Source: Ginglymostoma cirratum (lineage: Eukaryota). From it: 64,000 bases of DNA. The notes under the pieces were generated by a model. The model had not been told where the DNA came from, made no database searches, and worked only from the letters and a program-made list of their open reading frames with translations. The position numbers were made by a program, and so were the translations under genes. Each line of letters begins with the position of its first letter. The first letter of the stretch is position 1. The DNA lies in contig JAHRHZ010000009.1 of NCBI GenBank assembly GCA_024137785.1, forward strand, positions 15,211,892-15,275,891, read 5' to 3'. Positions 89 to 64,000 of the stretch are shown piece by piece.

Positions 89-182
89 ACCACTATTGTT
101 CCCAGAAAAGATCAAAGATCAAGGGGCTCAGTTTAATCTTGAAGGTGGAGGAATGGGAGTTACAGTGACAGTTGTCAGCGAT

Positions 183-303
183 GATGTGGAGGTGCTAGTG
201 TTGGACTGGGGTGACAAAGTCAGAAATCACACGATACCAGATTATAGTCCAACAGGTTTATTTGAAAATTCGGACTATAACCTGGTGTTGTGTGATTTCT
301 GAC
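183..303. mobile_element. Short fold-back Penelope-derived insertion, family C
   Basis: Inverted arms gtcagaaatcacacgataccagattatagtcc / ggactataacctggtgttgtgtgatttctgac, flanked by a degenerate 17-bp direct repeat (166-182 vs 300-316). A second family member lies at about 60390-60520. Confidence 0.65.
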
Positions 304-1444
304 AGTTGGCAATGATTTACTCCTGTACATTTTACTGATTTCTTCCCCACTATACCATCCAATTAAGGCCATCATAGCAACATACTGTAGGATCAAACAT
401 TCCCGTGCAGAAACATTTTTATGTTTGCCTTTGTGAGCAACATCACCAGCTAGCATAATGGAAGAACACAGACAGATGAGAAATGATGATGAGCAACATC
501 AGGGGATTTAGGTCCAATTTAAGAGTTAACACCCTCAAGGTTAAGTTCTGGCTTTGCAACCAGGGGATGGAATGTTGTTCCTGTCTTCATAGAATCATTG
601 TAAGTTGACAAAGTACATATTTACTGGCAAAGCAATGAACAGGCTTCACTGGAAACCTCATGAAACTTTCTTAAACTGAAAGATATAGTGATGACAGTGT
701 TTCTTTGTTTTAAAATCTTGTATGCATACTTAGATGTGAGCCCCAGAGTAAACATGACACGGTACAACATTGAGAATCCTTATGTTGCTAACATTGTGTT
801 AGCTTTTTGTTCTGCAGGTTAGATTTGACATTGCTAATTGTTATTGTAATGATAATTAACTTGCAGACTGATTTCTGACATGCTTAAACTCTGCACGAGA
901 TTGGCTGTACTGTAGTCCGCTCTGAGCACAGCACCTCGGCAAGGAGATGGTGGCTTTGGTGTGGGATGCTGTGTAAGTTCAGGGCTGCACGGATTCAGGA
1001 CACATTGCAAGATACTTAAACATTTCAAAATTAAGTGACAGATATTTGTTCAGTAAAGGGTATTAAGATTTACGGAACCAAAGCAGGTCAGTGGAGTTCA
1101 GATACAGCTCAGTCATGGTTTAACGTAAATGGTGGAACTGATTTAAAGGATGCAATAGCCTCTTCCTACTCATATGTTCCTTCCTATACTCGGTTTTATC
1201 AATTGTGAATTCTTAACCACGTCGCTCAAAGATTTTAAAACGAGTAATGGACCCAAAGGGCAAAATGACATCCTTCTGTCCCTGGTGAATTTATTTCAGA
1301 GATCTGTGTCCAAATATAATACTTTACAATGACAAATCTAACTTGCAAAATTAAGAACTAATACAAACTTAATAACATAAGCAATTTAAGCACTTCTGTC
1401 ATAAAAGTGTTGGTATAATGTTTTATTGTGGATGATAAATTCTC

Positions 1445-1712
1445 AGAATCCTTAGCATCCCTACAGTGTGGAAACAGGCTATTCTGCCCAATGAGTCCAC
1501 ACCGACCCTCCGAAGCACATCCCACACAGATCCACCCCCTATCCCTGTAGCCCTGTATTTCCCATTGATAAACCACCTAACACACACATCCCTGAACACT
1601 ATGGGTAATTTAGCATGGCAAATCCACCTAAGTTGTACATCTTTGGGCTGTGGGAGGAAACTGGAACATCCGATGAAAACCGATGCAGGCACAGGGAGAA
1701 TGTGCAAACTCT
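1445..1712 (-). mobile_element. HE1-like V-SINE, 5'-truncated
   Basis: V-domain core (gggtaatttagcatggcaaatccacctaag...ctgtgggaggaaactggaacatccg...gtgcaaactc) shared with five other copies in the window. Confidence 0.85.
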
Positions 1713-2344
1713 AAGAATGAGAGTGTGAAAATTGCATGTGGAAGCATTGAAATAATTACTGTATTGCAATGTTGGGTACGTGCTTGGGTCTGTGAAGTTT
1801 GCAGATATAACTGATATAACCAGCTTGGGCTTGTCTTTTAATTACTTGCCATTTATTTGTCTGTGCTTCTTTCCATTTCAATGTTACACAAAGTGTTTGA
1901 TTTCATCTCTCCTTCGAATCGTGGTTTATTTGGAGATTTGATTAATCAAATTACTCTGTTAGAATAGAGTTCACAACTCTCAGTTGCCATAAGTTATGAA
2001 GACAAGATGAATGAAGTTAGCTTTTGGTGTCGCTTTTTAACTATCAGCATCAATTGAAATTAATTCTTCATTGCTTCCACCTCTAGGTTTATCGGAGCAG
2101 GTTAAACTGTTCTTGTGTTGTTTCTGTTAATGACAAAGCAGTCGTTGTCTTCTTGGAAAGTCAACACTTCCAATGTCCCCTCCAAGCCACTGAATATCCT
2201 GTCCTAACTATAATGCTGTCAATGGGTCAAAACTTTGGATCTTCCTCCCTAGCAGCACTGCGGTATGCAAAAATCAAAGTACTTCAACAGACGGAGAAGC
2301 TTCCGCACCATAATCATCTTGGGGGATGACAAAGAAGAAAAGAG

Positions 2345-2885
2345 GAAGGCTTTGCATTTAAGTAACATTTTACACACTAGCAGATGTCTTAAAGTACTTA
2401 TAACCAGTAAAACATTTTTGAAAGTAGTCAGAATTGCAGCAGATATTTAAACACAAACAGCAATATGACAATTACAACAGCTGGATGGGTATGTGAATAG
2501 GAAGGGGTTAGAGGACTATGGGACGACTGCTGGCAAATGGGACTGGATTAATTTAGGATATCTGGTTGGCATGGACGAGTTGGACCAAAGGGTCTGGTTC
2601 TGTGTTTTACAACTCTATGACTCGAAGACAATGACAAGATAATCTATTTTGTTGTGGTGTTGATTTGGGGATAAGTATTGACCAAGCGACCAGGGATAGC
2701 TTCTCTACTTTTCTTCAAAAAGCTGACATGGGATCTTTTACAGATACCCAGTCAATCAGGTGGGGCCTCAGTTTAAAGGTCAATCAGAAGCTTGGCGCAT
2801 GCGACGGTGCAACACTTCCTCCATCCTGAAGTGGAGTGTCTTTTGTCTTTTGTGCCGAAGCCCGGGAGTAGGACTTGAACTTGAG
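2345..2885 (-). mobile_element. SacSINE1-like DeuSINE, interrupted by a + strand CR1 3'-end fragment (about 2480-2625)
   Basis: Deu-like core ttcttcaaaaagctgacatgggatcttttac, B-box gacttgaac. Nested CR1 tail ggatgggtatgtgaataggaaggg...ctctatgactc. Confidence 0.7.
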
Positions 2886-3172
2886 GTGTTATCAACTGAA
2901 ACGCTGCTGTCAAATCAGGGGACTTCGAAATGGATAACAAATAGTGGTCTTGAAAGCAATTCCCATACCCTCAAAAGGAATCTCAAAAAATAAATGTACA
3001 AGATGCATCTTTGGCGGAATCACCAGAGGTGTCTATGGGTTTAAGGCACAGGGATGACTAATTTGCTGCAAATTGATGTTGTGAACAATTCAGGGAATGA
3101 AAGGGATTTTTCTGCTTAACTACAATATCTAGTTTTCTTTACATACGTTAAGACAGAAATAAAACCACTTAC

Positions 3173-3289
3173 CACCGCAGATGGCTCCTTCACTGTCCTC
3201 ACACTGTCGGTCATCACATTCACAGTTTTTCCCATAGACACGCCTATCTCCTGGTGGGAAACAAGTGCACTGACCACACTGGCATTTTC
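3173..3289 (-). CDS. ITGBL1: ITGBL1 internal coding exon (117 nt, phase 1-1; exon 8 equivalent)
   Basis: ctatttag|GA AAA TGC...TGC GGT G|gtaagt. Translates [40 protein letters not shown]. Confidence 0.96.
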
Positions 3290-4724
3290 CTAAATAGAAC
3301 AGTCAGTGGGTTAAACTCCTTGACAACACATAAACATGAATGATTTTTAGAAAAAGTACTAATTAAGGAGCATTCACTCAGATTTTGCTGGACTTTTCCA
3401 TTATTGAGGTATAAACCCTCCCTCAAACCATGGTGATTGCTTGTGATCACCACAACTAATGGATGATTTGTCTGCCAGTGACATCACAGAAACTGCACTT
3501 CATTCTCAACCTCCCTTGAGTTTCAGGAAAAAGCTGTATTTGCATAAAGACTACCTATTAAACTCACCACTGAAGGTTTGGGCTGGTAGTTAGCAATATA
3601 GGGAAAGCACTCCTTAAAATGGCATGTCTCCAATTCAGAAAACAAACAATGAAAAATTATAGAATCTCATTCCTTTGGGTTGTAAATCATTGTTTGAGAT
3701 TTTAATAATGCTTTATTTTCTCTCATAATGCAATTGTTCTTTATTTTTCAAACTGTCTTTGATTTGAGTCTAGTTCACTTGACGTCCCTGTCCGTCATCA
3801 TTATCTATTCCCCAAAGCTTGATACTCTGCTAGACTGTTTGTCCCATTGTTCTCAAGAGTTCCAAATACTCTACTGCCTCCGCTGGACTGGCATCAGCTC
3901 AGTCATCCAATTAATCCAATAGGGAATTCAAGAGAAATATTTTTGCCCAAATGTGAGAATGTGGACCTTGCAAGTTGTTGGTGCATCCTGCAAGGCAAGT
4001 CTGAGTTGCCAGAATGCACTGTAGGCGCATTGTAGAAATGCCAGGATGGTCATGGCGGGTTGTCAATGTCATTGGAAGAATGCATTCGGCTGGTGCCCAC
4101 GGATCCTGTTGTCCAATGTCCAATATGGCAAACATTCAGAGCCAATTCCACCCGATACCCATTCTGGTTTCATTGTCAAGTTTTCCCAAAGTCTCTCGAG
4201 TTTGGTAAGATAGGAGTTTCAATACAACGGATACACATTGTTGGCATTGACAAAATGTTTACAAGTGATAATGAGCGTCAGTCGGCATGTTGCCGCTACC
4301 AAACAAGAATCTCAGTCACACCACTTGTTAAAGTATAACAGACTCGGATGTTGAGATGGGCCTAGCCACACTTATTTCCTGAATCAGCCACGTACCTCAT
4401 CGTAGCCCATGTCACTCAACCCCCTGTAAGATTCCACCCGTGGAATGGTGAGAACAATACCAGATGCACAAACAATGATATTCAATAGATACATGAGGGG
4501 GAAAGTAATGGAAAGATAGGTGGATAACGTAAGGTGGGATAAAGACTCATATGAAGTGATCGGCGCAGGCTTGGAGGGCCGAAGGGCCTGTTTCTGTGCT
4601 GTAATTTTCTTTGTTCTTTAATTTTCTTTGAAGTACAGCCTCCAGCAATTGAAATGGCTTTCTCTGATGTCAACATTCACTGTATGGCTATGAAATAAAT
4701 TTGAATGATTGACAATAACAACAA

Positions 4725-5215
4725 CTTGCATTTAAATAATACATTTTTTTTAAAAGAAGACCTGCATTTATATAGATCCTTTCATGAACCAGAGCATCCC
4801 AAAGATCAACAGCCAATGAAATATATTTCTAGTTTAGTTGCAGTTGTAATGTTGGGAATGCAAAAACCAATTTGGATGCAACAGATTTCTACAAATAGCA
4901 ATGTGATAATGACCAGATAATTTGCTTTTTGGTGATGGCTGATTGAGGAATAGTTATTGATTATGACAGCAGAAAAAGTCCTCTATGCTTCTTCAAACAG
5001 TGCCATGGGCCTTTTACAATCACCTGAGGTGACAGATGGGGTTTTGGTTTTACAACTCATCCAAAACGTGACCCCTCTGACAGTGCAGTACACCATCAAC
5101 CCTACGTCACAAGCATGAGCCTAGAGGGCATGTCAAAATCTTGGACCCCAAGACTTGAAACCACAACTTTCTGACTTAGCAGTGAGAGTGCTACACAGTG
5201 AACCATGGCTGACAC
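4725..5215 (-). mobile_element. SacSINE1-like DeuSINE, near full length
   Basis: Deu core cttcttcaaacagtgccatgggccttttac, tRNA-like head gacttgaaacccacaactttctgacttag; homologous to 15150-15540 and 60640-61000. Confidence 0.75.
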
Positions 5216-6649
5216 TTAATTGTAGCAAAAAGTCCCAAAGTTTAATCAAACACCACACTGAATAAGGAGTTATGGGGCAGACGGCTACAAGTTCTGTCAA
5301 CAAATAAGTTTTAAGACTCATGTGAAAGGTAGATAGACATGTAAAGAGCTGGGGAGATTCCTGAAGAGAATGTACAGACCCAGGCAGCTGAAGGCATGAT
5401 CGACGCTGGTGGAGCGATGAGAATCAGGCATGCGATTCGATTTAAAATGGAATTATTTACATTTAGTTTGAAAGTCTCAGGATTGCGATACAAGATGTGA
5501 TGTAGCAGGTGTTTACTTGAACTGGAAACAGGGTGAATTGTTCCAATCAGTCAAGGAAGCAGTGATGAAGAAATGAGCTATGCTGTGACCTTGTAACTGT
5601 CCTTGGACACTGACATCAATAAAACCCTTGAAAGATGGAATCCTTGATGTGTTGCCTTTGATGTTGAAAGTGAAGTCTGGCTCTCTCTCTCCCATTTCTT
5701 AACACCAACAAAAACTTGCAGTGAACTTGAGACAAATTTATAATTCCAGTGATTTCCCTAGTGCATTGATTCTCCATTAAATCAGTCACCTCACTTATCA
5801 CAATACCTGTGAGAATTTTATAGGAATATTCGAAATTCACAAGATACTGTAAATAAGCAGAAATGATTCCCACTGGCAGGACAATCAATAATCAGAGGAC
5901 ACCAATTTAAGGTAACCGAGGAAAGAACCAGTGGAGAGATGAAGAGGGTTTATTTTGGGGGGGCAGTGAAATGTTGTGATAGGGAATGTACTGCCAAAAC
6001 ACATAATGGAGGCAGATTCAACAGCAACTTTCAAACTGGGATTGAAGAGTTCCTTAAAAAGGAAAATAAATTTCAATTCATGGAAAAGAGCCGAGGGAGT
6101 GTGACTAAGTGGATAAACTCTTTCAAAGAGCTGATGCTGGCATGATGGGCTGAATGGCTTAGTTCAGCACTGTTGCATTATCTGAAAACCTCACTACAGA
6201 AATGCAAGTTGATGCAACCTTTATATTTACCATCACTTTGTGAAAGAACTGATGACGTGAACTCAGTGGTTAAGACAGAAAGAGTACCAAGCCTTAAGCA
6301 TTAAGGCTGTTTTAATTTGAATTTCACTGATATGCTTCCATTAATCAGTTAAACCTTCATTTGTAAGGATGCAAAGTGCTCCATTACCTGTCTCTACTTT
6401 CTGGTAGCCTCACAGAAACATGGGTAAATCATACTGCCCCAAATCTGATCCCTGTACCTGATCTTCTACACCAATTACACTTCCACACACTCTCCCTATA
6501 TTCTTTAGTCCCTCAGTTCCCTACATTAATTGACCTTGGTCTTGAATATACTCCTGACTGTACATCTCCTCATAAACTTTTTTTCTGAGTTTTAGATTCT
6601 TCAGCTCAGCCTCTTGACATCCACATTGGGAAGTCCTCCCAGTATATTA

Positions 6650-7100
6650 AAAACCGAAAAAAACTGCTGGTGCCATAAATCAGGAACAAAAACAGAAACT
6701 GCTGGAAAAGCTCAGCAGATCTGGCAGCATCTGTGAAGAGAAATCAGAGTTAACGTTTCAGGTTGAGTGACCCTTCCTCAGAACAGATGGAGGCTAGGAA
6801 AATGTTGGTTTCTATGCAGAAGATAGGGTGGGGGGAAGGATTAAGGAGTAAACGATAAATGGGGATAGAGCCCAAACAGAGAGAAGAATTGTTGGACAGA
6901 CAAAGGAGATCCAGCTAGGAAGTTGAATATCTATTAATGCGGACTGTTAGTGGGTAACAATGGGTTGTGCGTATTAGCAAACTATGTGATAACAAGGCCT
7001 GGTGTGTGGGGATTGGGGTAAGGACACGGAAGAGCTCCAGTCCTAAAGTTGTTGAACTCACTATTGTGTCCAGAAGGCTGCAGGGTCCCCAAGTGGAAAA
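6650..7100 (-). mobile_element. Penelope-like element 3' portion (GIY-YIG C-terminus plus pLTR with hammerhead)
   Basis: The reverse of about 7040-7100 encodes LGTLQPSGHNSEFNNF, a PLE GIY-YIG tail. Hammerhead core CTGAGGA...GAAACGTT on the - strand at 6747-6784. Confidence 0.85.
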
Positions 7101-8934
7101 CGTGGTGTGGATTATACATTTCAATGAGATCACCTATTATTCTTTCTCCCAGGTCACGGACAGAACCTTTTCAGCATTACTGCTAATAAATTAAACAGCG
7201 ATCAATCTCAAACAAAGGATATACACGCCACATGTTTCTTCAGTAAATTATTTTGCAAACCTTCAGCTTGACTATAATTTTTACCCTGGAACTAGGTAGG
7301 AATGTGAGCTAACAAAAACGTAACGTGGTCTCTGTGACCTCAGCAACAGGGCCAACACATTATCCACTTGATGATTAAGATTAAGGACTTGAGAAAGAAA
7401 GAAAAAGAAATCAGGTAAATTGGAATTGAGAAAGAGAGGGAAAGAAAAGTAGAGGATCAAAACATGAACATTTGTAAAAGTTTAACATAAAATTTTAAGC
7501 ATCTTGATCAGTTACCTGCAGGAGTGATATTCCAATGTTTAAGTTGTTCCCTTTCTGAGCCAGACAGATTGCTTGGTATTGGGTTGACACTTATCAAGAT
7601 ATTCATCACGCCCCTTACACTGGTAATTACCAGCCCTAGTAGTGATTTCGATGGTTAGCAATGAGCAAATCTATCAAGTTCTTATAAGTAATGGGGAGTT
7701 TGAAAGCATAATGCTGTTGGTATAAAGTAAACAACAGGACAGCATAAATCAACCAGCAAGATCTGGAGACAGCATCTCATGGTGTCTCTCTTTATCCTTT
7801 GAACTTGCTAAACAATTAAGGCATTAATAAGAGTGAGTGTTATTAGCCTACTGTTATTATTATAAAATTATTTGGTCTATCATTTAACTTATAGAATGCA
7901 AATAATCATTGTAAGTGTTATTTGCCAACTGAAAACAAGCAAATAGGTCTGGACAAAACTGATCAAAAAGGTCAGGACATAGGATATCATATGTTTGCAC
8001 AGTTTTGAGAATGGCATCCTAACTATTCTGCTTCTCTGTAAGGAAATTATTAGCTTTACTAAGATAATCAGCACACACTGATTAAATAGAGCAATTTGGG
8101 CATGAATATTGATGCTACAGAAAATAAGTCATTTTCAGACTCTAACAGAAGGCAATAAATGGCCTAATACAGTGATCGGAACTATATATAAAATTCCAGC
8201 TCTGGCCTAACCAATATGTGATACAGTTCCAGCATTACATCCTTGTTTTTATATTCTATGCCTCATCCAATAAAGAAAACATATTGCCTTTAAAACTAAA
8301 ATTGTTTCAAGGAGCTAGGACAGGGATGATTGGTCAAATTGCCTCCTTCTGCGCTGTATGATTCTGAAAACATCCCAGTACCAGTTATTTTCCATAGCTT
8401 CTGGTTCATACAGGTTGACAACTGCAGTTCCCTGAAGAGTTAAGGATGTGCTCTGAAGGTAATTGGGCCCCTCATGTCTTAGCTTTTCATGCATTTTGCT
8501 GGTTTCATCATCTTCAGTCAGTTGATTGTGAACCAATTTTAATGACATACCTTGCAATAGAAAGCAAGACAGAAATCCACAGGGAAATTTGATTTGAAGA
8601 TTAATTTACTGAAAAATGCCAACAGCTTTGGGAAGCTTTAATCACCAGAATGTTAACTATATTCATTACCTGAGACAGATTGTCACTCTTCACAAACGTT
8701 CTCTCACTCACATTGATCTGAGGCCATGGTTCATGTCTATATTACAACAGATGTATTTTAACAAACACTTAAGCTTTCATCCAGGTGTCTAATTATCATC
8801 AGCTAAATAAGAAAATAATATTTTGGCTTAATTTTCACTGCATGATGACCATCAGAATCTCTGAGGGGTAAGGGTCCTTAGCTCAACTGGCTGTTGAAGA
8901 AGGCCAAAAGCTTATGCCATTAATTCCTCAGGAT

Positions 8935-37000: not shown

Positions 37001-37579
37001 GTTGTGATTATATTAAAGCTGATAAGAACAGGGACAACACTCTTGCCCTTCCGTGTCTCAGTGAATGATTTTACAATGACTAATTGTATGTTGGACGCTC
37101 TCTTGGGTCCTCAGCGTCACAGATGCCAGTCATCATCCAATTCAATTCACTCCACATGGCATCATGAAATGGCTGGAGGCAGTGGACACTGCAAAATCTC
37201 TGCGCCTTGACAACACTCTGGCAATTGTACTGAAGCTTTGCACTTTTGATCCTGAAATTTCTCAACCTGCTAGTGACAGTACATATTTCAATCTCTACAG
37301 AGTCAACAAGCCAATAAACTGAAGAACCAGCTGCATCCCTTGCCAAGGTGTTCCTGTATTGCCACAACATTAGCATCTCCCTGAAATGCGTGAAAAATTG
37401 CCCAGGTATTCCCTGCCCATAAAATGTAGGACAAATCCAACCTGGTCAATCACACCTATCAGTTTACACTTGATAATCAGTGAAGTGATGCAAGGAATCA
37501 TTGACAGAGCTATTCAGCAGCAAATGGGAACACTACCACACTGTCACAAGGACACATGTAGTTCTTCAGGGTAATTATG

Positions 37580-38090
37580 TCGAATCAACTTATTCAGAGG
37601 TGTCATGCCACAGCTCTGGAGCCGATGGAACTTGAACCCATGGCTCTTGGTCTAGAGGTAAGGACACTACCACTTTATGACAAGAGCCCTGAATTTGTTG
37701 TGGTTCTTTTTTTTTAAAAAAATCAACCTGTTATGGAACATCTCTAGTGCAGATGGGACTTGAACACGGGCCTCCTGAATCAGAATTAGGGACACTACCA
37801 CTGTTCCACAAGGGCCCTATGATCCCTCAGGGTTTTTTTTTTAAACTATTTTCTATTTCCCAAACAACCTGTTCAGAGATGTTATAACACACCTCTGGAG
37901 CAGATAGGACTTGAACCTGGGCCTCTTGGTTCAAAGGTAGGGATGCTATCACCGCACCACAAGAGCCCTGAATTTATTGTGTTTATTTTTTTTAAATCAA
38001 CCTGTTATGACATATCTCCGGTGCAGGTAGGACTTGAGCACATGCCTCCTGGCTGAGAGGTAGGGACACTAACTCTTCACGAGAAGGCCT
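37580..38090 (-). repeat. Four tandem ~105-bp tRNA-like SINE units arranged as a duplicated dimer
   Basis: Each unit reads on + strand caacctgtt...ctggagcag.tgggacttgaac...ggtagggacactaccac...acaagagccc; period about 270 bp for the dimer. Confidence 0.85.
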
Positions 38091-38137
38091 CATAGCTCCT
38101 CAGTGTTGTGACCTATTCCCAACCATCTTCCAACCAT

Positions 38138-39094
38138 AATTAGGTCAGAAGGGGCTCCCCTGGTGCAGGGTAATATCTGTACCCCTCGATCAGGAGGTCT
38201 GGTTCAAGTCCCACCTGTTTCAGGGGTGTGTAATAACATCTCTGAGCATGTTGATTAGATAAATAGGTTAAATAAAATTTTGATATTAGGTCAGAAGACC
38301 ACTGTCCTTATCCCCCTACCTCCTTCACCTTTGGTGGTTTGCATCAGGCTTTGTTTGTAAATACTTAATTGGTTACACGGGTGTTTTTACTGGTGGTGGA
38401 TGGTAGTTAAAAAAGAAAAACAAAGAAATGCCCCCGTGATTTTGGTGGTGGGAAGGTTCACTCAGTTGTGTGTGCTAACACTCCTGGGTAGAAGAAAGGA
38501 AAATTAGGTCAGTAGAGGCTCTTGCAGCACAGTGGTAGTGTTTCTACCTCTGAGCAAGGACACCTGGATTCAAGTCACACCTGCTTTGAAGGTGGGCAAG
38601 AGCATCCCTATACAGGTTGATTAAACAAAAAACAATTAGGTCAGAAGACCAGTCTCTGTGGTGCAATTTATCAGTGCTATTGTCTGTTAACCGAAAGGTT
38701 GGTAGTTCAAGACTACCTAGAAACAGAGCCTCCCCCAGTAAAGGCGGTGCAGTGGTAGTGTCTCTGCCACTGAGTCAGAAGACCTGAGTTCAAGTCCCCA
38801 CTGCTTCAGACGTGTGCAACAACTTCTTTGAACTGGCTAATTAGAAAATAGGTCTGAAGTTGCCCGTTACAAGCTTTGCATGAAAATTAATCAACAGGAT
38901 AACATGGGCGAAACATCTAAAAGAAAATCAATTGCGTATAGGAACACTTCTGGATTTTAAAAATAAATTACATTAGAAGTGGGGCAGTGGTAGTGTCCCT
39001 ACTTCTGAGGCAGGACACCTAGCACTCCCCATATGCTACATTGGTGTGACAGCAACTCTGAACAGGTTGGTGAGAAAATAAATTAGATCAGAAG
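38138..39094 (+). repeat. Array of seven 14-bp direct repeats (AATTAGGTCAGAAG) separated by 100-205 bp inserts, including four + strand tRNA-like SINE units
   Basis: Repeats at 38138, 38285 (13-mer), 38502, 38634, 38846, 38966 (degenerate) and 39081. Confidence 0.85.
38652..38725 (+). pseudogene. tRNA-Asn(GTT) pseudogene
   Basis: GTCTCTGTGGTGCAAT...CTGTTAACCGAAAGGTTGGTAGTTCAAG aligns without gaps to the recalled vertebrate tRNA-Asn (74 nt, about 75% identity by hand count). Anticodon loop intact; D-arm, T-stem and acceptor pairing broken. Confidence 0.85.
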
Positions 39095-40753
39095 TAGGGA
39101 TGTTAATTGATGGTTCCACAATGTTCAGCATCGTTTGCAGTTCCTCAGATACTGAGGCAGCCCCTCATCCAAATTCGGCAAGATTTAGTCAATATTCAGG
39201 TCTAGGCCGATCAGTAACATCGGTGCCAGGCAATGACCATTTCCAACAAGGAAAATCTAACCATCCGATCTTGATGTTCAATAGTATCACCATCGCTGAA
39301 ACCCCACTATCAACATTTGTGGTTGTTACAATTGACCAAACTGGACTTGTGATATAAATATTGTGACTACATGGCCAGGTCAGAAGATAGCAATTCTGCA
39401 ACTTGTAACTCACCACATGACTTCTGAGAGCCTGCCCACCATCTAGCAGGCACAAGTCAAAAGTGTGATGGAATGCTCCCCACTTACCTGGTTGATGCAG
39501 TCCAACAGCACTCAAGAAGCTTGACACCATCAAGGACGAAGTAGCCCACTTGATTGACATCACATCCACAAACGATGCACAACAATAGCAGTGTGCACCA
39601 TCTACAAGATGAACTGCCGCAGCAATACACCCAAACTTCTTAGCACCTTCCTAATCAGTGACCTCCACCACTTAGAAAGAAAGAGACAGCAAAAAGCATG
39701 GGAACACTACCATCTGCAAATTCTTCTCCGAACCATGCACTATCTTGAACATCGAACTGTATCACTATTGCTTCATTGTCACTGGATCAAATTCCTTCAA
39801 TTCCCATCCTAACTACACTTTTGCTATTCTCATACCCCAAGGACTGCAGGGGTTCAAAACAACAGCTTACCACTACCTTCACAAGGGCAATTATGAAAGG
39901 GCAGTAACCGCAGTGATATGTGCATTCCAAATACAGATAGTTTTTACATGATTTGAATTTGGAATAATTCACATTTCTAATTGATGAGAATCAGGAAAAG
40001 TGGAATGAGCAGATTGGATGCCCAGCACAGACCCCTTACTAAGAGTTTCAGCTTTGCTAAAGACTGTGAAGATTATTATTTCACAAAGCAAGTTGTAGAA
40101 ATTCTGGCTCCTTATCCTCAGGACTTGAATACTAAATTTTAAATGTCAAAAGAACTGCTCACTGGTGTGAACAAAAGCATATCTTCAAATATATCAGCAG
40201 AATGAGGGGGAAGCTTTGCATATTAACTGTTCCCTCCACATGGAAAACCCAAAGTAATGTGAAAAGTACACAGTTATTTTCAGAGATATGTGACAAATAC
40301 TTGGCACATGGTATGAGAGTCTAAGCTTGAGTTCATTCCTGCTAAGCAAACAGAAAAACCAAATTCTAACTTTATGAACCTCTATAGGCCGCCCCTTACC
40401 CTGCCCTTTTCAAGAGGGCAATGCCCAAGCCTCGTCAATCTTTCCTGATCAGGAAGCCCTCCAACTTTAGGTATCATCCAGGTTTATCATTCTTGCATAA
40501 TGCATCTTCTATATCTTTCCAATAACATGGAGACCAGAAGTATGCACAGTACTCCAAGTGTGCACTCATTGCCTCTAGATTTGAACTCTTGCTTGCAATA
40601 CTCCTTGGAGAGCCAAGCACAGGATATTGTCACCTAATCCTTGGATCCCTCTGAACTTGAGAATTTGCAGTGTTTCCGGACTTGAGCTGAAAATTTCAAA
40701 GCCAAGGTTTTCCTTCTTTCCGTCCCTCCCCAGCATTGTACTTTTTTTTAAAG

Positions 40754-51014: not shown

Positions 51015-52218
51015 AAATTTATTCACGTGCAGAATGTGGGCATTGCTGGCTGGCCAGTATTTATTGCTAGGCCCTAGTTGTCATTTAGAAGATGATGGTG
51101 AGTTGCCTTTTTGAACTGCTGCATTTCATGTGCTGTAGATAGACCCACAATACTCTTCAGGAGGAAATTCCAGGATTTTGACCCAGTGACATTGAAGGAA
51201 TAATAATATATTTCCCAGTCAAGATGGTGAGTGTCTTGGAGGGGATCTTGCAGGTATTGGTATACTCACGTATTTGCTGTTCTTGTTCTTCTAGATGGAA
51301 GTTGTCACGTGTTTGGGATGCGCTGTCTAAGGATTGTTGGTGAATTTCTGCAGTGCATCTTGTAGATAGTACTCACTGCTGCTACTGAGTGCTGGTGGTG
51401 AAGGGAGTGGATGCTTGTGCATGTGGTGCCAGTCAAGTGGGCTGCTTTGTCCTGGATGTGTCAAGCTTCTTGAGTGTTGTTGGAGCTGCACTCATCCGGG
51501 CAAGTGGGGAGTATTCCATCACACACCTGTCTTGTGCCTTGGAGATAGGGGCTTTGCAGGTGGCAGGAAGGGAGTTACTCACCACAAGTCCTCACCTCTG
51601 ACATGCTCCTGTAGCCACTCTGTTTATGTGGTGAGTCCAGTTGAGTTTCTGGTCAATGGTAACCCCAAGGATGTTGATAGTGAAGGATTCAGTGATAGGA
51701 ACACCCTTGAATGTTAAGGGGCTGTGGTTAGATTGTCTTTTATTGGAGATAGTCATTGCCTGTCATTTGTGTGGTGCAAATGTTACCTGCCTTTGTCAGA
51801 CCAAGTCTGGATATTGTCCAGATTTGAACATGGACTGCTTCAGTATCTGAGGAGTCGCAAATGATGCTGAACATTATGCAATCATCGGCGAACATCCCCG
51901 CTTCTGACCTTATGATGGAGGGAAGGGCATTGATGAAGCTGCTGAATACAGTTGGATTTAAGACATCACCCGGAGGAATTCCTGCAGAGATGTCAACGTG
52001 GTCGACATGGACTTGAAGGGTCTATTTCCATGCTGTATGACTGCATGCTCTATGTCCTGGAGCTGAGATGACTGATTTCCAACAAGTACAATCATCTTCC
52101 TATGTGCCAAGTATGACTCCAACCAGCGGAGAGTTTGCCCCCTGACACCCATTGATTCCAGTTTTGTTCAGGCTTATTGATGGCACAGTTGGTGAAATTC
52201 AGCCTTGATGTCAAAGGC
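51015..52218 (-). mobile_element. CR1-group LINE 3' 1.2 kb nested in a + strand CR1 (50845-51010 and 52220-52770)
   Basis: MGVRGQTLRWLESYLAHRKMIVLVGNQSS RT motif; 3' tail ggccagtatttattgc; the flanking CR1 pieces are collinear. Confidence 0.85.
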
Positions 52219-63767: not shown

Positions 63768-64000
63768 GGCCTAGACACCGCCATGTGCCACTGAGACACC
63801 AGGCCCAGAAACTACCATGCGTCGCCAAGACAACAGGGCTGGGGCACCGCCGTGTGCTGCTGAGACACTGGGCCCAGACACCACCATGTGCCACCGAGGC
63901 ACCAGGCCCAGACACCGCCATGTGCCACCAAGAAACCAGGCCCTGACACTGCCATGTGCTACCAAGACACTGGGCCCAGACACCGCCACATGCCACCAAG
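63768..64000 (+). repeat. GC-rich 34-bp minisatellite, about 7 units, running off the window end
   Basis: Unit ggcccagacaccgccatgtgccaccaagacacca starting at 63768, 63802, 63836 and onward. Confidence 0.95.

Follow-up and report, generated by a model that had tools for sequence, protein, structure and literature searches.

How does a LINE in the genome of Ginglymostoma cirratum come to hold the same short word seven times over, with cargo of differing kinds in between? The window that we analysed, a stretch of 64,000 nucleotides, contains such an array, and the initial annotation had read it as a possible record of serial retrotransposition into a single site, in which each event regenerated the target and captured a different RNA, giving a CRISPR-like architecture. 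Target-primed reverse transcription duplicates its target. In CRISPR arrays a short repeat alternates with different spacers, and each addition regenerates the repeat. The features of the array and of its surroundings are as follows.

37300-37521, plus strand: host LINE, upstream ORF2 fragment, with 65-68% matches to two other copies in the window
37575-38085, minus strand: second stack, two dimers of SINE A (four units in all), missed by the initial annotation
38090-38151, plus strand: stretch of host LINE that separates the two stacks and has word 1 at its end
38138-38151, plus strand: word 1, the native copy of the duplicated 13-14 bp target, on the 5' side
38152-38283, plus strand: SINE A unit 1, full length, long A-rich tail
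38284-38297, plus strand: word 2
38298-38501, plus strand: 5'-truncated 3' UTR of a Tx1-clade LINE (family B) with A-rich tail; longer copies reach Tx1 ORF2
38502-38515, plus strand: word 3
38516-38633, plus strand: SINE A unit 2
38634-38647, plus strand: word 4
38648-38745, plus strand: decayed pre-tRNA-Asn copy with short leader, tRNA (38652-38725) and trailer; no word before the next SINE
38746-38845, plus strand: SINE A unit 3
38846-38859, plus strand: word 5
38860-38965, plus strand: 5'-truncated and internally deleted Tx1 3' UTR, with the 3' end of a sister subtype (L047, L049)
38966-38979, plus strand: word 6, the most decayed, three mismatches
38980-39080, plus strand: SINE A unit 4
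39081-39094, plus strand: word 7, 3' copy, with native host LINE after it
39095-39900, plus strand: host LINE continues with the RT region and what follows it, matching the window copy at 51075-51898 at 67% over 839 bp

At the far end of the window (63768-64000) there is a 34-bp tandem repeat of 6.8 copies that runs past the window end.

The seven words are indeed present. Copies of AATTAGGTCAGAAG are found at 38138, 38284/5, 38502, 38634, 38846, 38966 and 39081, with 0, 1, 1, 0, 2, 3 and 1 mismatches in this order, and are separated by spacers of 132, 204, 118, 198, 106 and 101 bp. When three mismatches are allowed, the whole window contains 17 matches (expected 9.1 ± 3.0), seven of which fall on the same strand of a single 957-bp stretch. 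The proposal that the word is LINE sequence is confirmed by another host-LINE copy in the window, which has a single uninterrupted word, ...ccatcataaggtcagaagcggggatgttcgccgatgat, at 51901-51914 on the minus strand, just before the GMFADD codons. Moreover, the LINE does continue after the last word, as had been noticed: the interrupted copy is collinear on both sides of the array and resumes at 39095. The T of ATT is common to all seven words, and the uninterrupted window copy reads ATA. An A-rich tail immediately precedes words 2 to 7, word 1 being the exception. The host LINE is presumably CR1-like, judged by its motifs, and not Tx1; a tblastn search with the Tx1 ORF2 protein P0008 gave no match in the window, host LINE included.

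The cargos fall into few families. Four are units of SINE A, as the initial annotation had it, a tRNA-like SINE of about 115 bp that is short, dispersed and non-coding, and that has an A-rich tail and target duplications. One of the units scores 17.1 bits on the Rfam tRNA family RF00005 (E 3.3), and A- and B-box-like motifs can be recognized by eye. The tRNA-Asn copy was likewise correctly recognized: 38652-38725 scores 28.9 bits on RF00005 (E 0.0019), just below the gathering score, ARAGORN called no tRNA at this copy, and its leader and trailer are similar to what flanks the tRNA at genomic tRNA-Asn loci. The fusion of a tRNA to a SINE with no word in between recurs at two other loci (L144, L152). 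At a further locus (L079), a repeat termed X below is filled with SINE and Tx1 units, and ahead of these, after the left half of X, non-Asn tRNA-like copies are present as cargo.

Two ideas on how the SINE might choose its site were rejected. One of the array's units does contain a word similar to the target, as had been noticed, but the SINE generally does not: among 122 near-full copies, AGTCAGAAG is found exactly in 2 and within one mismatch in 4. Homology-assisted targeting by this word, which the initial annotation had suggested, would have to rely on a rare variant that is internal and lies away from the priming 3' end. Tethering to the Pol III machinery upstream of tRNA genes is also unsupported. 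Six intact-looking tRNA-Asn loci (L130, L135, L138, L147, L148, L149) have no SINE or LINE unit within 1.5 kb, and the sole upstream SINE among 21 tRNA-match loci is found at a decayed one (L133).

The two remaining spacers had been described as unique DNA, a reading that we reject. A search of the genome with the array gave 72 matches among the 40 scored of 5,239 candidates, and most of these hit spacer 2, which is present in dozens of genomic places. For spacer 5 there is one other BLAST match only; two collinear segments of it match the profile of family B, at profile positions 204-250 and 328-356. Its 5' half was left unplaced by global alignment and was placed by the profile search, with 2.9 bits, a comparison in which 0 of 300 shuffles was reported above 0. 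Both spacers are 5'-truncated 3' UTRs of a Tx1-clade LINE. Members of family B have a fixed 3' end with an A-rich tail, variable 5' truncation points and a target duplication. Longer copies run upstream into a decayed open reading frame that matches the C-terminus of Xenopus Tx1 ORF2 (P0085; 36-56% identity and E 2e-7 to 2e-13 for L020, L029 and L033). A related copy with a different 3' UTR (L123) is 48% identical over 210 amino acids to the RT region of X. laevis Tx1 ORF2 (E 2e-54), and its closest database relatives are turtle proteins with endonuclease and RT, at up to 50% identity. The 50%-identical turtle relative, P0008, has an N-terminal AP-like endonuclease. This domain is not reached in any of the fetched copies, among which the lowest tblastn start on P0008 is residue 204 and no intact Tx1 copy was found; five extended regions, searched for a full-length Tx1, contained 5'-truncated copies only. 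A check for a C-terminal zf-RVT domain gave 21.9 bits with PF13966 (E 0.00028), below the cut-off of 27.5, and NCBIfam added nothing.

To judge by these alignments, family B is a Tx1-clade non-LTR retrotransposon whose ORF2 RT is closest to Tx1, and all six cargos derive from one Tx1 LINE lineage, from its SINE or from a pre-tRNA fused to that SINE. The capture of different or unique RNAs, which had been part of the original reading, does not describe this set. Two further observations concern Tx1 copies elsewhere. In L053, L057, L063, L071, L072 and L076, the Tx1 copies have other types of 3' UTR, and their ends abut a different TATA-like word within a second repeat, which itself terminates in AATAAA...CA; L053 has a word-SINE-word stack there. 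LTR TATA boxes may serve as targets for several Tx1 subfamilies, each with its own. L122 contains a broken ERV-like stretch (100-5300 and 5305-7625) with gag-, integrase- and env-like frames recognizable by eye, and the duplication on either side of its Tx1 fragment is unusually long, roughly 250-350 bp.

Are the units independent insertions, or copies of one another? The initial annotation had named as the mark of simple tandem duplication that the SINE units be each other's closest relatives with collinear spacers, and neither is the case. We compared 122 near-full SINE copies from the fetched loci. Their distance is 0.293 within the same cluster (131 pairs) and 0.296 between different clusters (7,250 pairs). 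The window's four units rank as each other's 29th to 112th neighbours of 121, and their mean distance is 0.32, compared to 0.296 for random quartets. They share 15 derived letters, compared to 10.7 ± 4.3, an excess that is not significant. SINE units that are no closer within the array than to copies elsewhere argue against simple tandem duplication. A tree of 48 copies is star-like, with 1 of 45 branches supported, and does not reject the four window units as one clade (p-AU 0.285), which makes the sequence-based test of independence weak. The stronger argument comes from the cargos, which are of different families and lengths and were truncated at different points. Local tandem duplication of a word-plus-SINE unit, followed by decay and replacement of some cargos, could accommodate the unrejected monophyly, and in the neighbouring minus-strand stack the two halves share an otherwise unseen deletion and linker; the unlike cargos largely refute it for the array, at which Tandem Repeats Finder gives nothing, and we consider it very unlikely.

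The neighbouring stack deserves a closer look in this context. It is separated from the main array by about 55 bp of host LINE, faces away from it and carries a boundary word of its own, likewise host-LINE-derived, at about 38094-38107, 37821-37834 and 37560-37573. An internal deletion and a linker common to units 1 and 3 are found in no other fetched locus. The stack may have arisen by duplication of a dimer on the spot, in which case duplication does occur near the array, or by two insertions that had the same dimer as their source. Another host-LINE copy (L139:1470-1625) has a SINE at the same minus-strand site with an 11-bp duplication.

The main array very probably results from six successive target-primed insertions by the Tx1 machinery, in each of which 13-14 bp of the host LINE were duplicated.

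Mixed stacks of this kind, with their units head to tail, are found at other genomic loci. In a selected sample of 121 fetched clusters, 58 consist of a single unit and 63 of 2-13 units. Between 14 and 18 of the 121 clusters in this selected sample have at least five units (five clusters with five, four with six, six with seven, and one each with 8, 9 and 13). Many stacks sit in repeat X, whose empty copies measure 249-266 bp and which has TG...CA ends, a TATA box, an AATAAA and 5-bp host duplications. In the 14 copies with both ends, the 5-bp flanks match at 4-5 of 5 positions in 6 and at 3 or more in 10; in the 4- and 6-bp registers the flanks of these 14 copies are near random. Repeat X thus looks like a solo LTR, and a comparison with Rfam gave no credible match. 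To see how often X is occupied, we took 30 X copies, out of 498 candidates of which 40 were scored, that had been retrieved with only the left half of X. SINE or Tx1 units are present at the TATA word in 24 of the 30, one of the 24 being the query copy; five are empty, and one has another poly(A)-ended insert. The word reads TATAAAGCAGACCC in L087 and L089. It recurs between units, and X resumes past the last word in many copies. We conclude that the TATA word of the solo-LTR-like repeat X is the main target of the Tx1/SINE system. In L087, the X word is followed by unrelated sequence ending in a long pure poly(A), which is possibly a processed mRNA end put in by the same machinery.

Off-target stacks are flanked by locus-specific words (L006, L013, L026, L139, L143), and a comparison of these words with the X word showed no clear common motif. 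A script found multi-unit stacks at 10 of 14 central non-X loci, window included, two or three of which look by eye like one split copy. Among the off-target clusters, B comes first in 15 of 21 and A last in 13 of 21, a trend from which no conclusion can be drawn, since most of the loci were retrieved through their similarity to B, and since copies of B are sometimes split.

How does the site in the host LINE compare? Exact patterns of a word followed by the SINE start were found 14 times for the X word and 0 times for the host-LINE word, and those of the SINE end followed by a word 50 times and 2 times, respectively, counts that are to be read as ratios and not as copy numbers, since exact patterns detect the least decayed fraction only. 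The two host-LINE cases are the array and L128, a second host-LINE copy that is filled at the array's site and has a decayed target duplication. Serial retrotransposition into a single site with target duplication, the core of the original proposal, is supported, L128 being likewise filled. The large excess of insertions expected at the LINE site is not seen: two filled junctions stand against 1,296 exact empty sites. The host-LINE site is a rare secondary target.

The array might also have arrived ready-made, as one block copied from elsewhere. Dimer-like blocks do exist, in the second stack and in the tRNA-SINE joins, but the internal words are the host LINE's own sequence with the variant letter of the array copy, and none of the 40 candidates scored (of 5,239) matches the array as a block, coverage elsewhere reaching no more than about 330 of its 1,111 bases, with identities of 69-88%. 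Such a transfer is extremely unlikely.

Contigs of a relative (runs X1, X2, X4 and X7, from three studies) cover 37869-38230 and 38230-39240 with all units present. The array is about 94% identical in this relative (58 changes in 1,026 bases), which indicates that it is old and has been static between the two species. No partly filled orthologue or smaller allele was detected among the contigs of this one relative, in whose listing many joints are paralogous SINE copies. The stepwise growth between species that the initial annotation hoped to observe is thus not seen, all units being already in the one relative compared. Nor do the units reveal an order of insertion. The SINE units lie 16-22% away from the column majority and show no gradient. 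In the arrays compared, the less diverged unit is the 5' one in 10 and the 3' one in 18 (p 0.18); a further comparison gave 6:9 at X and 3:3 off-target. Insertion order or polarity by divergence is not significant.

These results bear directly on the notion that the cell uses the array as a memory, into which foreign or cellular RNAs are taken up between conserved repeats. The repeat-spacer look is there, and the words are less decayed, with 7 changes in 91 positions, than the SINE units (about 17%), although the array was found through its recognizable words. The spacers, however, are not unique; they are retroposon copies with A-rich tails, of variable length (101-204 bp). Polarity is not significant, many such stacks exist genome-wide, and the relative shows unchanged unit content with ordinary divergence. 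No host gene was identified, no associated genes were seen, and Pfam gave no match in 8 of the window's 13 longest open frames. With no sign of use either, we give the CRISPR-like reading practically no credence. The array is a fossil by-product with no sign of function.

How would six serial target-primed insertions come about at one poor site? Tx1 ORF2 would have cut the targets and copied all cargos, as the shared targets, the co-stacking, the A-rich tails and a similar 3' motif in SINE A and the Tx1 LINE (seen by eye, unscored) suggest; with no intact Tx1 copy or endonuclease among the fetched copies, the link to this enzyme is indirect. A first insertion would leave word, unit, tail and word, and later insertions would re-use a word of the stack. 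The junction of an A-rich tail and a duplicated word would constitute a fresh site, better for nicking and priming, so that stacks could grow at almost any seeded site. Six events at a rarely filled site, together with stacks that are common at unrelated words, favour such a feed-forward step. It would make the 5' unit the oldest, and the trend of 18 versus 10 arrays agrees with this, without being significant. Tentatively, and short of an even chance, we picture a self-reinforcing Tx1/SINE system that homes to an LTR TATA word and prefers seeded tail-word junctions irrespective of the word, and whose stacks record six to thirteen events with LINE ends, SINEs and pre-tRNAs as cargo, possibly through a processive complex.

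Processivity could be taken further, to one burst within one cell, in which the Tx1 complex re-nicks the regenerated target and takes up another RNA at every round. The six insertions would fit, at a site seldom occupied across the family, and so would array units of similar age, multi-unit stacks at unrelated words and the template switching evident from the tRNA-SINE joins. Yet a brief period of family activity would also give similar ages, clustering needs no processivity if a good or self-improving site is used repeatedly, and 58 of the 121 clusters are single units. A single burst is therefore improbable, and successive insertions remain the preferred reading.

Related systems are known. 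The LINE clade of Xenopus Tx1L is the same as here, as judged from the RT match of L123, and both target another repeat. Tx1L reportedly inserts into the Tx1D transposon in a strictly site-specific manner and with a longer duplication, whereas the preference here is strong but leaky. In crocodilians, according to Kojima 2015 (PMC4494074), Tx1-Mar LINEs and SINEU share a target inside a Mariner element, tandem SINEU-3 copies sandwich a target duplication through sequential insertion, one host has two opposite-facing sites, and two Tx1 families prefer LTR retrotransposons. The supplements of that paper list Tx1 targets that may bear on novelty. In contrast to that system, the SINE head here is tRNA-like instead of snRNA-derived, the elements go mainly to the TATA word of a solo-LTR-like repeat of 266 bp, and the stacks are long, mixed and also found at unrelated off-target words. 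For Drosophila, McGurk and Barbash (10.1101/158386) report double insertions with an intervening target duplication for R1, P element, jockey and DMRT1, and independent events recognized by different 5' truncations. Those elements, as in the array, are separated by a copy of the target duplication. They are for the most part dimers of one family, in which unequal exchange may cause expansion, whereas the present array is heterogeneous and unamplified.

Judged by its sequence features, the array belongs with such serial-insertion tandems, having a target copy at each junction and units of apparently independent origin. Serial target-primed insertion that regenerates its own duplication is a known mechanism; its members here are apparently undescribed. 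Our literature search found neither this set of families nor a cartilaginous-fish system nor Tx1 at TATA boxes, and families may be held in Repbase, Dfam and subscription papers, which lay outside it.

What does this mean for the biology of these elements? The array itself cautions that repeat-spacer patterns in vertebrates can be stacked retroposons. The genome-wide system is a further case of a Tx1 LINE and a partner SINE that target another mobile element, with an occupancy of the LTR TATA word of about 80% in the X copies examined. Filled X copies raise the question of whether insertion behind an LTR TATA box supplies a promoter, and the long, mixed off-target stacks constitute a natural data set for asking whether an insertion improves its own site as a target. 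The locus is an old by-product; the interest lies genome-wide, in the targeting of an LTR TATA word and in the possibly self-reinforcing growth of the stacks.
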